Below are positions 4,755 to 5,180 of a DNA stretch of 64,000 nucleotides, piece by piece. The stretch lies in assembly GCA_947383645.1 (NCBI GenBank), contig CANDEH010000001.1:16230-80229 (forward strand). The letters are read 5' to 3'. The stretch is from an uncultured Clostridia bacterium (GTDB lineage Bacteria > Bacillota > Clostridia > Oscillospirales > Oscillospiraceae). The notes below the pieces were generated by a model. That model was given only the letters and a program-made list of their open reading frames with translations, was not told where the DNA came from and made no database searches. The translations under genes and the position numbers were made by a program. The stretch's first letter is position 1; every line of letters begins with the position of its first letter.

Positions 4755-4825
4755 GAGCTAAGAGTGGAGAGATAGGAGATATGAGATAGGAGATAGGAGT
4801 TGTGGTATCCCGCCTTTGGCGGGAT

Positions 4826-5140
4826 CAGACTGTCAAAAAAGTCAATAGAGCAGGATGACGGTAAGGAGGATAGTGTGAAAGGAACCCAAGAAGGGTTCCT
4901 TTCGCGTCAAATCGCCCGCCCGCAGGCGACAGATTTCGGCTGTGAGCCGAAATCTGGTAGGCCCGGCAACTGTGTTGCCGGGCCTACCCAAGAGGGGTTC
5001 CTTTCGCGTGCAATCGCCCGCCCGTACCCCAAGGGCATTTCCTCGCCGCTGCGCGGCTCAGGCACAGGCGACAAATTGCGGCCAAAGGCCGCAATTTGCC
5101 TCAGCTTGTCGAAAAACCCGTTGGTTTTTTTGACAAGCTG
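4826..5140 (+). mobile_element. MITE-like composite hairpin element (family 1), copy 2, long form
   Basis: Imperfect terminal inverted repeat: CAGACTGTCAAAAAAG at the left end versus CAGCTTGTCAAAAAAA as the reverse complement of the right end. Five internal hairpin modules. Flanked by perfect 19-nt direct repeats ATCCCGCCTTTGGCGGGAT (4807-4825 and 5141-5159). Confidence 0.8.
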
Positions 5141-5180
5141 ATCCCGCCTTTGGCGGGATGGATTTGAAAATTTGATCGAC

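Follow-up and report, generated by a model that had tools for sequence, protein, structure and literature searches.

Elements and flanking hairpins in the window

The stretch of DNA analysed here (the window) comprises 64,000 nucleotides of an uncultured Clostridia bacterium of the Oscillospiraceae (NCBI GenBank assembly GCA_947383645.1, contig CANDEH010000001.1, positions 16,230 to 80,229 of the forward strand), and it holds four copies, A to D, of a short non-coding element that adjoins G+C-rich hairpins. Around the first two copies, the genes and elements are ordered as DhaL-like gene, Fer4-domain gene, copy A, spoIIGA, sigE, copy B, GntR regulator, and ABC ATPase. Copy B is 315 bp long, starts with CAGACTGTCAAAAAAG, ends with TTTTTTTGACAAGCTG, and lies 3' of sigE between two perfect copies of a 19-nt hairpin, ATCCCGCCTTTGGCGGGAT, which confirms the description in an earlier, sequence-only reading of the window. 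The hairpin sequence occurs exactly twice in the 64-kb window, at 4807-4825 and 5141-5159, while its chance expectation was zero (100 shuffles, with up to two mismatches permitted). The features of copy B are as follows.

4807-4825, no strand: left target-hairpin copy 3' of sigE, arms ATCCCGCC-TTT-GGCGGGAT, an exact match with 5141-5159
4826-5140, plus strand: copy B, read as a MITE (miniature inverted-repeat transposable element), 315 bp, non-coding, with perfect hairpin modules (from the sequence, aligned with copies A, C, and D)
4826-4841, plus strand: left terminal inverted repeat of copy B, (T)CAGACTGTCAAAAAAG, which matches at 15/17 positions the left inverted repeat (IRL) TCAGACCGTCAAAAAAC of a full-length element (L132) described below
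4862-4903, plus strand: conserved 5' block with AAGGAGG resembling a ribosome-binding site (RBS), GTG, and the hairpin GAAAGGAACCC/GGGTTCCTTTC (from the alignment of copies)
5100-5140, plus strand: terminal hairpin of copy B, formed by pairing of the right terminal inverted repeat, GGTTTTTTTGACAAGCTG, with an inward copy, CTCAGCTTGTCGAAAAACC
5141-5159, no strand: right target-hairpin copy, identical in sequence to the left copy

The boundary of copy B, as it reads in the sequence, is ambiguous by one base at each end, and the duplication is 17 nt instead of 19 nt if the ends are taken as TCAG...CTGA, as in related insertion sequences. The hairpin at this site is trailed only by GGATTTGAAAATTTG, and the terminator scan placed a stronger terminator at 5181-5210.

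Repeat search and alignment added three copies (A at ~2914-3084, C at 42323-42640, and D at 48615-48831). All four share one orientation and range from ~171 to 318 bp in length.

2876-2913, no strand: left terminator copy (hairpin and T-tract) of the Fer4-domain gene at copy A, 38 nt, matched by the terminator scan
2914-3084, plus strand: copy A, MITE of ~171 bp, internally deleted, its left end without the first ~7 nt of the terminal repeat
3086-3122, no strand: right terminator copy at copy A, 37 nt
42309-42322, no strand: left flank of copy C, the 3' arm only, CAGAAGCCGGGTGT; the hairpin is complete on the right side
42323-42640, plus strand: copy C, MITE of 318 bp with complete ends CTCAGACTGTC...GACAAGCTGAG
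42641-42676, no strand: complete hairpin ACGCCCGGCGTCTG-atttctat-CAGAAGCCGGGCGT, which touches the right end of copy C
48603-48614, no strand: remnant of a second hairpin copy at copy D, one arm, CCCCGCTGCGCA (from the empty-site comparison with L216)
48615-48831, plus strand: copy D, MITE of 217 bp, its left repeat degenerate (CTTGG for CTCAG)
48832-48857, no strand: complete hairpin at copy D, the terminator of the minus-strand flotillin-like gene, CGCGCAGCGGGAT/ATCCCGCTGCGCG

Flanking repeats were thus located at all the positions that the sequence-only reading had listed, namely 2876/3086 (38/37 nt, differing by one mismatch and one indel), 42309/42663 (14-16 nt), and 48603/48847 (10-12 nt). 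Its further statement that these copies follow the logic of copy B, with whole hairpins duplicated, holds for copy A and fails for C and D in their present form, where the left flank is the 3' arm alone and the right flank is the whole hairpin. Since whole repeats stand at A and B and a single arm is left at C and D, the general layout can be written as (arm-loop-)arm' - element - arm-loop-arm'. Sites A and D are clear terminators. The neighbours of C and D are minus-strand genes for an MMPL transporter, an 847-aa protein, and the flotillin-like protein, together with a plus-strand TetR gene.

The complete left end of the element, as found in copy C, is CTCAGACTGTCAAAAGAG. The copies have in common a conserved 5' block composed of the RBS-like AAGGAGG, GTG, and a perfect hairpin, which is identical or nearly so in A, B, and C and has five mismatches in D; it is probably a relic of the leader and start codon of a parent element. 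Further perfect hairpin modules vary by copy, being present in some and absent in others. The right end is built of the inward repeat CTCAGCYTRTCGAAAAACC, a loop of 4-5 nt, and the terminal repeat GGTTTTTCGAYARGCTGAG, and its stem has been preserved by compensatory changes (TTATCG/CGATAA in copy A and CCTGTC/GACAGG in copy D). A hairpin lies ~12 nt from the tip of each element end. The fold energy of copy B as single-stranded DNA is -115.8 kcal/mol versus -62 for shuffles (z = -12.6).

A coding role was considered, as the RBS-like site and GTG open a reading frame that ends at the last bases of copy B, and it was rejected: copy A has a stop after 11 codons, the first 11 codons alone are common to the copies, and the shared modules are read in different frames in B, C, and D. 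A scan of the whole window with Rfam returned no family at the gathering threshold.

Several other observations were made in the window. The gene order 5' of spoIIGA is Dak1-Dak2-Fer4, versus an S1-domain gene and DUF951 in close relatives (2869-3260 versus L113 1409-1732), and similarity to L113 restarts ~60 nt right of the right-hand terminator copy of copy A; because of both, copy A, with its defective left end, is placed close to a rearrangement breakpoint. A second repeat family has three copies, at 14273-14375, 33658-33760, and 52806-52900, with the layout of a hairpin TTTTTCGAAAAC-gcg-GTTTCCGAAAAA, then GATTTTAG..ATTT, a GC hairpin, and AACTCTGCGAGGC. Its module order resembles a ~217-bp CTCAG-ended MITE family of Flavonifractor (L055), Sporobacter (L013), and Galloscillospira (L009). 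Terminal repeats are not recognisable in the window copies, which may be decayed relatives. A low-complexity intergenic motif lies near gene ends at 4757-4800, 16013-16048, 39795-39830, 61291-61326, and 63321-63356; one strand reads TAGGAG/ATAGGAG and the opposite strand AATTCCTAATTCCTAACTCCTAATT. The motif also occurs inside an 86-nt repeat (61230 and 63260; 94% identical) that has a GC hairpin as well, and a shorter form stands at the sigE 3' end of relatives. Positions 4752-4822 had elevated depth in both DNA and RNA contigs. The repeat search also returned a run of 9-12-nt periodic repeats, TTCTGGTTCTGATTC..., at 51800-51921 (family D2).

Empty sites and target hairpins in other genomes

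Relatives with a SigE 95-98% identical to that of the window have a sigE-GntR spacer of 176-187 bp, versus 553 bp in the window. In their alignment (L113-L121), the conserved flanks GTTGTGGT and GGATTT enclose one hairpin, GTCCTGCGGAGCGGGAC (GTCCCGTGGGGCGGGAC in L121), and no element, while the window has hairpin, element, and hairpin between the same flanks. For site D, one relative (L216) was found through a 75% ortholog of the neighbouring 847-aa protein and holds the flotillin-TetR spacer, in which one terminator, GAGCGCACAG...CTGTGCGCTC, is followed by TTTTGCTTTTT and the element is absent. At the same place, the window has the orthologous hairpin, the element from its exact 3' foot, and then only TGCGCAGCGGG, a remnant joined to sequence that sits ~25 nt past the terminator in L216. 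The comparison with L216 therefore suggests that the second hairpin copy at D has lost its loop, other arm, and T-tract. Partial second copies would then reflect later deletion, which is indicated by the empty site at D and is probable at C.

The flanking repeats are true target-site duplications, since sites B and D in the relatives each have a single hairpin and lack the element. The empty-site check had been set beforehand by the sequence-only reading; the repeats proved to be neither tandem terminators that predated the element nor a part of it, and its proposal of hairpin-targeted insertion with whole-hairpin duplications of variable length is supported by both sites and by the 38 sites listed from other genomes, described below. 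The comparison covers B and D; at C, the contig of the relative ends inside the MMPL gene, and copy A lies outside the comparison, the upstream gene order of spoIIGA being different in relatives. An empty-site allele was also sought at A and B in the reads and contigs of four metagenomes, where no clean 4825-to-5141 joint was found and contigs break in the repeat. Similarly, a metagenome scan with the flotillin-like protein for site D returned only relatives at 74-85%, the spacers of which had no similarity and no elements, and 80 loci from more distant gut relatives included no copy with these ends.

A scan for the end motif CTCAGCYTRTCGAAAAACC in one genome per species returned at least 106 loci, and the counts in this section are among the matches listed. 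Nearly all of these belong to the Oscillospiraceae and other Clostridia; the hosts include Dysosmobacter, Flavonifractor, Pseudoflavonifractor capillosus An827, Sporobacter termitidis, Lawsonibacter, and Intestinimonas. The terminal motif CTCAGnnTGTCGAAAAA forms the end of many distinct MITE families of ~150-290 bp. When stems of 5 bp or more are counted as hairpins, 84/107 distinct ends have one whose 3' foot adjoins base 1 of CTCAG exactly, versus 41/1060 (3.9%) random positions in the same loci. The length of the flanking direct repeat equals the hairpin length on both sides in approximately 36 of the 50 complete copies. In total, 38 duplications of 11-35 nt were recorded, 21 of them perfect, and the hairpin sequence is different at each of the 38 sites, so the hairpin is no component of the element itself. 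At 33/38 sites, the right copy is followed by a T-rich tract or the left copy is preceded by an A-rich one (the background of T-rich 9-mers being 4.4%), which argues that the usual target is an intrinsic terminator, often a two-way one. Exceptions with unrelated hairpins on the two sides are L006, L029, L077, L088, and L096.

In two loci (L050 3856-4081 and L106 317-485), the flanking hairpin copies differ by a loop inversion (TGCTTCA versus TGAAGCA in L050), so that the second copy is the reverse complement of the first; post-insertion template switching is the probable cause of this flip. Tandem MITEs with one common hairpin between them (...CTGAG / hairpin / CTCAG...) occur in L066 (5051-5400) and in the upstream flanks in L083, L085, and L090. 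If the outer ends of such a pair were used together, the common hairpin would become internal, a possible origin of the internal terminator-like modules. A scan of viral contigs for the end motif gave one match, probably by chance.

With respect to abundance, element k-mers reach ~100-350x the depth of single-copy flanks in four mouse-gut metagenomes that hold the organism, and contigs end in the element. If the element is confined to this species, this would correspond to some hundreds of copies, an upper-range figure to which other community members may contribute. The internal sequence of the window family (family 1) was found in this species alone among all loci fetched, and close relatives are without the element at the sites examined. 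In metatranscriptome contigs, the element sequence is at 30-100x the depth of its flanks.

IS1182-family elements with the same ends

The ISfinder database gives direct repeats of 0-60 bp for the IS1182 family. ISCbo5 on plasmid NC_015418 encodes a 454-aa protein that matches the NCBIfam model NF033551 (IS1182) with E = 2e-141. Its ends are CTCAGGCTGTTGA...TTGAACAATCTGAG, or in fuller form CTCAGGCTGTTGATAAAC and TTTTTGAACAATCTGAG, and it is flanked by a 28-nt duplication that represents most of a long hairpin. The PLSDB gene table has no entry for this copy (L122 35705-37322; p3BKT015925, NC_015418). Of the hairpin at this site, which has a 17-bp stem, the duplication includes the 5' arm and the loop, and of the 3' arm just the inner part; a one-strand join can therefore fall within the stem and not at the foot. 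In C. botulinum group III, ISCbo5 sits in terminator hairpins, every site except one being a hairpin at the end of a gene, and each direct repeat listed is a whole hairpin, 20-44 nt long, with element ends cag...ctg (Skarin 2011, PMC3098183, Table S3 for the repeats).

The ISCbo5 protein, used as a tblastn probe, identified a frameshifted IS1182-type gene in L051, directly inside an end, CTCAGCCTGTCGAAAAACC, with which the right ends of copies D and B agree at 19/19 and 16/19 positions, respectively. Reading through the L051 fragment led to full-length homologues of 443-447 aa with the domains PF05598, PF01609, and PF13751, one of which is named by its source 'IS1182 family transposase [Clostridia bacterium]'. 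Six complete elements of ~1.75 kb were found (L124, L127, and L131-L134), with ends TCAGACTGTCGAAGAACC or TCAGACCGTCAAAAAACC, and each is flanked by a whole-hairpin direct repeat of the following length.

L124, full-length element: duplication 24 nt
L127, full-length element: duplication 20 nt
L131, full-length element: duplication 20 nt
L132, full-length element: duplication 19 nt
L133, full-length element: duplication 25 nt
L134, full-length element: duplication 23 nt

Three of the proteins of full-length elements, of 446-447 aa (P0228, P0140, and P0176), match NF033551 with E of about 1e-124. Because the same ends and whole-hairpin duplications flank full-length IS1182-family elements, the partner of the window elements is assigned to the IS1182 type and not to IS200/IS605. 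Among the matches listed from the end-motif scan (at least 106 loci), no parent element was recovered, either as paired ends 1-3.5 kb apart or by clustering all open reading frames (ORFs) of at least 250 aa. The mouse-gut metagenomes with this organism contain, in abundance, fragments with 80-90% identity to the transposase gene of L051, which are not assignable to this genome; they are suggestive of a partner and no more.

The likeness of the window elements to these insertion sequences covers ends, sites, and end structure. The ISCbo5/ISBma2-like elements of the IS1182 family (C. botulinum group III and C. novyi-NT) have ends CTCAG..TGT / ..ACA..CTGAG, and the MITE repeat is 15/19 identical to the right inverted repeat of ISCbo5. 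ISCbo5 also shares the insertion at gene-end hairpins, the whole-hairpin repeats of variable length, and the inward copy of the inverted repeat beside an end; the terminal-hairpin architecture of the window elements recurs in L051, at its element end, and in ISCbo5, at the IRL. In contrast to the window MITEs, which measure 171-318 bp and have no gene, ISCbo5 is autonomous, with a length of 1.6 kb and a transposase of 454 aa. The hosts differ as well, Clostridium for ISCbo5 and a high-G+C gut member of the Oscillospiraceae for the window, and the copy number of the window element is apparently far above that of ISCbo5, given four copies in 64 kb and the metagenome depth of 100-350x flanks. The full-length elements of uncultured Clostridia (L124-L135, and the L051 end) are closer still in their near-identical terminal repeats (TCAGACTGTCGAAGAACC, TCAGACCGTCAAAAAACC, and CTCAGCCTGTCGAAAAACC), in the hairpin just inside each end, and in the 19-25-nt whole-hairpin duplications at terminator-like sites. 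Unlike the MITEs, they encode a DDE transposase of 446-447 aa, and their genomes of origin may differ from that of the window.

Units of 45-65 bp, in which two terminal repeats face each other across a short loop, were also observed at L020 5262-5311, L022 1392-1456, L040, L075 6285-6333, and L110. In L020, L040, and L075, the unit is the end of a longer MITE (199-278 bp); it is likewise the right end of the window family (5100-5140), and comparable end hairpins are present in L051 and the ISCbo5 IRL.

Mode of insertion, alternatives, and significance

The four elements are in all likelihood IS1182-family MITEs, deletion derivatives that are moved in trans and for which palindromes are chosen by shape, the whole palindrome being duplicated. 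As the ends and subterminal hairpins are kept and a transposase gene is absent from the elements, an IS1182-family DDE transposase would have to move them in trans.

In DDE chemistry, the two 3'-OH ends of an element are joined to the target strands at the 5' edges of the segment to be duplicated. The same 5'-edge reasoning is given by Wan 2017 (PMC5678879), where a 5'-foot attack that duplicates the whole stem-loop is drawn as 'pathway b'. Shape and not sequence would mark the target, a palindrome rich in G+C that would in most cases be an intrinsic terminator's stem-loop just 3' of a gene. Strand transfer would occur at the two 5' feet of the palindrome, as in pathway b; the two joining points, 11-38 bp apart in the linear duplex, would lie side by side at a cruciform junction, which would explain how one enzyme can produce duplications of any length. 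Repair of the two single-strand gaps would then copy the whole palindrome on both sides, which would account for a duplication as long as the hairpin of the site (17-19 nt at B, 37-38 nt at A, and 11-35 nt elsewhere). Alternatively, the hairpin may be targeted while single-stranded at a replication fork. After insertion in a two-way terminator, each copy would retain the tract that stops transcription out of the element, and transcription entering the element would meet a hairpin without its U-tract. The irregular copies could be accounted for by deletion in one palindrome copy (D, and probably C), by truncation of the left end of A, and by loop inversions, and the mismatched flanks by recombination between copies.

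Several points weigh against this account. No IS1182-type transposase gene is present in the 64-kb window, the part of this genome that was scanned. The single arm on one side of C and D, the ~7 nt missing from the left end of A, and the differing hairpins, or lack of any, at the two sides of approximately one-quarter of the complete copies elsewhere, among the matches listed, all call for secondary changes, for example a deletion or recombination of copies with one another. In addition, strand-transfer positions are experimentally established for no IS1182 member, and the staphylococcal IS1272 deletes its hairpin and does not duplicate it (Furi 2016, PMC4923244; Wan 2017, PMC5678879).

A different role for the elements, as modules of mobile origin that the host now keeps as 3'-UTR (untranslated region) stabilisers, terminator or insulator cassettes, or a small-RNA gene, is improbable. 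The compensatory changes in the terminal hairpin would suit it, as would the metatranscriptome depth of 30-100x flanks and the outward-facing hairpin with a T- or A-tract that stands at each side after insertion. However, the stem is perhaps kept because the transposase requires it, and the RNA depth may reflect only copy number or DNA carry-over. Module content varies by copy, close relatives are without the element at the same sites, and no Rfam family reaches threshold in the window.

It is highly improbable that the duplications arose without a transposase, by replication slippage or template switching at palindromes or by recombination that spreads a structured cassette between terminators. 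Palindromes are hot spots of template switching, and the loop-inverted (L050 and L106) and partial (C and D) copies show that such events take place; yet slippage would not bring one and the same insert of 170-340 bp to hairpins that are unrelated, and the boundaries CTCAG...CTGAG are sharp, conserved across many genera, and identical to the ends of transposase-bearing elements with the same duplications. The replication- or repair-mediated mechanism that the sequence-only reading had entertained is thus superfluous, as nothing beyond ordinary gap repair is needed.

That reading had also suggested IS200/IS605-type or other hairpin-recognising enzymes as examples to search for, and movement of single strands by a tyrosine HUH transposase (of an IS200/IS605-type palindrome-associated element or a REPIN/RAYT system) recognising subterminal hairpins would suit an element that is full of perfect hairpins and adjoins others. 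IS200/IS605 elements are without terminal inverted repeats and target duplication and insert 3' of a fixed tetra- or pentanucleotide. The window elements have clear inverted ends of 17-19 nt, long duplications, and flanks of unconserved sequence, and the same ends bound IS1182-family DDE transposase genes in the full-length partners, so that hardly any chance is left to an HUH enzyme. Pre-existing repeats have next to none: tandem terminators do occur 3' of genes (a second one is at 5181-5210), but exactly one hairpin at the orthologous empty sites refutes them for B and D, and a hairpin travelling inside the element is contradicted by the different flanking hairpin of every copy at the 38 sites listed.

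Other identities were rejected on anatomy. Terminal inverted repeats, duplications that differ from site to site, and the lack of a ribozyme or reverse transcriptase rule out a group IIC intron, a site-specific integrase, and IS200/IS605. Stem-loop replacement of the IS1272 type was rejected on the hairpin present on both sides at A, B, and 38 other sites among the matches listed.

The preferred reading, IS1182-family MITEs inserted at palindromes, has precedents. IS1272 targets terminator hairpins in staphylococci (Furi 2016, PMC4923244; Wan 2017, PMC5678879), and some members of the family target palindromes according to the Siguier 2015 review, as cited in these two papers. IS1272/TnSha1 of staphylococci, also of the IS1182 family, resembles the window elements in its stem-loop or terminator target without consensus and in insertion at the hairpin base. 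Unlike them, IS1272 replaces or partly deletes the hairpin without duplication; in the Wan scheme, the attack is at the 3' feet, versus the 5' feet (pathway b) here. The elements also resemble bacterial MITEs (Correia, RUP, ERIC, and BIME/REP clusters) in being short, non-coding, structured, intergenic, and multi-copy, with terminal repeats that match those of an insertion sequence, and their mosaic of hairpin modules is as in BIMEs. Classical MITEs have a short fixed duplication (TA for Correia), whereas the length in the window elements is set by the target palindrome.

In the open-access full-text literature, no description of IS1182-family MITEs or of their spread in the Oscillospiraceae was found, and a 2025 paper states that little is known of how IS1182-family elements work. 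The MITE families are new, while the principle of whole-hairpin duplication is already recorded for ISCbo5. A specialist in insertion sequences will not be very surprised; for a duplication defined by structure, the comparisons are unusually clean evidence.

A bolder and rather doubtful extension is that the transposase reads DNA shape alone, docking on an extruded palindrome at its four-way junction, or on a fork hairpin in single-stranded DNA, and joining at the 5' feet, with donor and target perhaps recognised alike through the end hairpins of the element itself. Within this gut lineage, the MITEs would then have spread to a few hundred terminators and grown by capture of duplicated hairpins as tandem copies moved together, giving rise to the module mosaic, and they would perhaps act as insulators against transcription out of the element in both directions.

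For the family, 44 independent insertions (38 MITEs among the matches listed and six full-length elements) and two empty sites show a duplication length that is set by the target palindrome, which fits 5'-foot attack on a stem-loop, the opposite of the hairpin-deleting IS1272. For the gut Oscillospiraceae, these MITEs break metagenome assemblies, create duplicated terminators, and can be miscalled as small ORFs. An enzyme that inserts at terminators just 3' of genes with no sequence requirement would, if reconstituted, be a possible low-damage integration tool.

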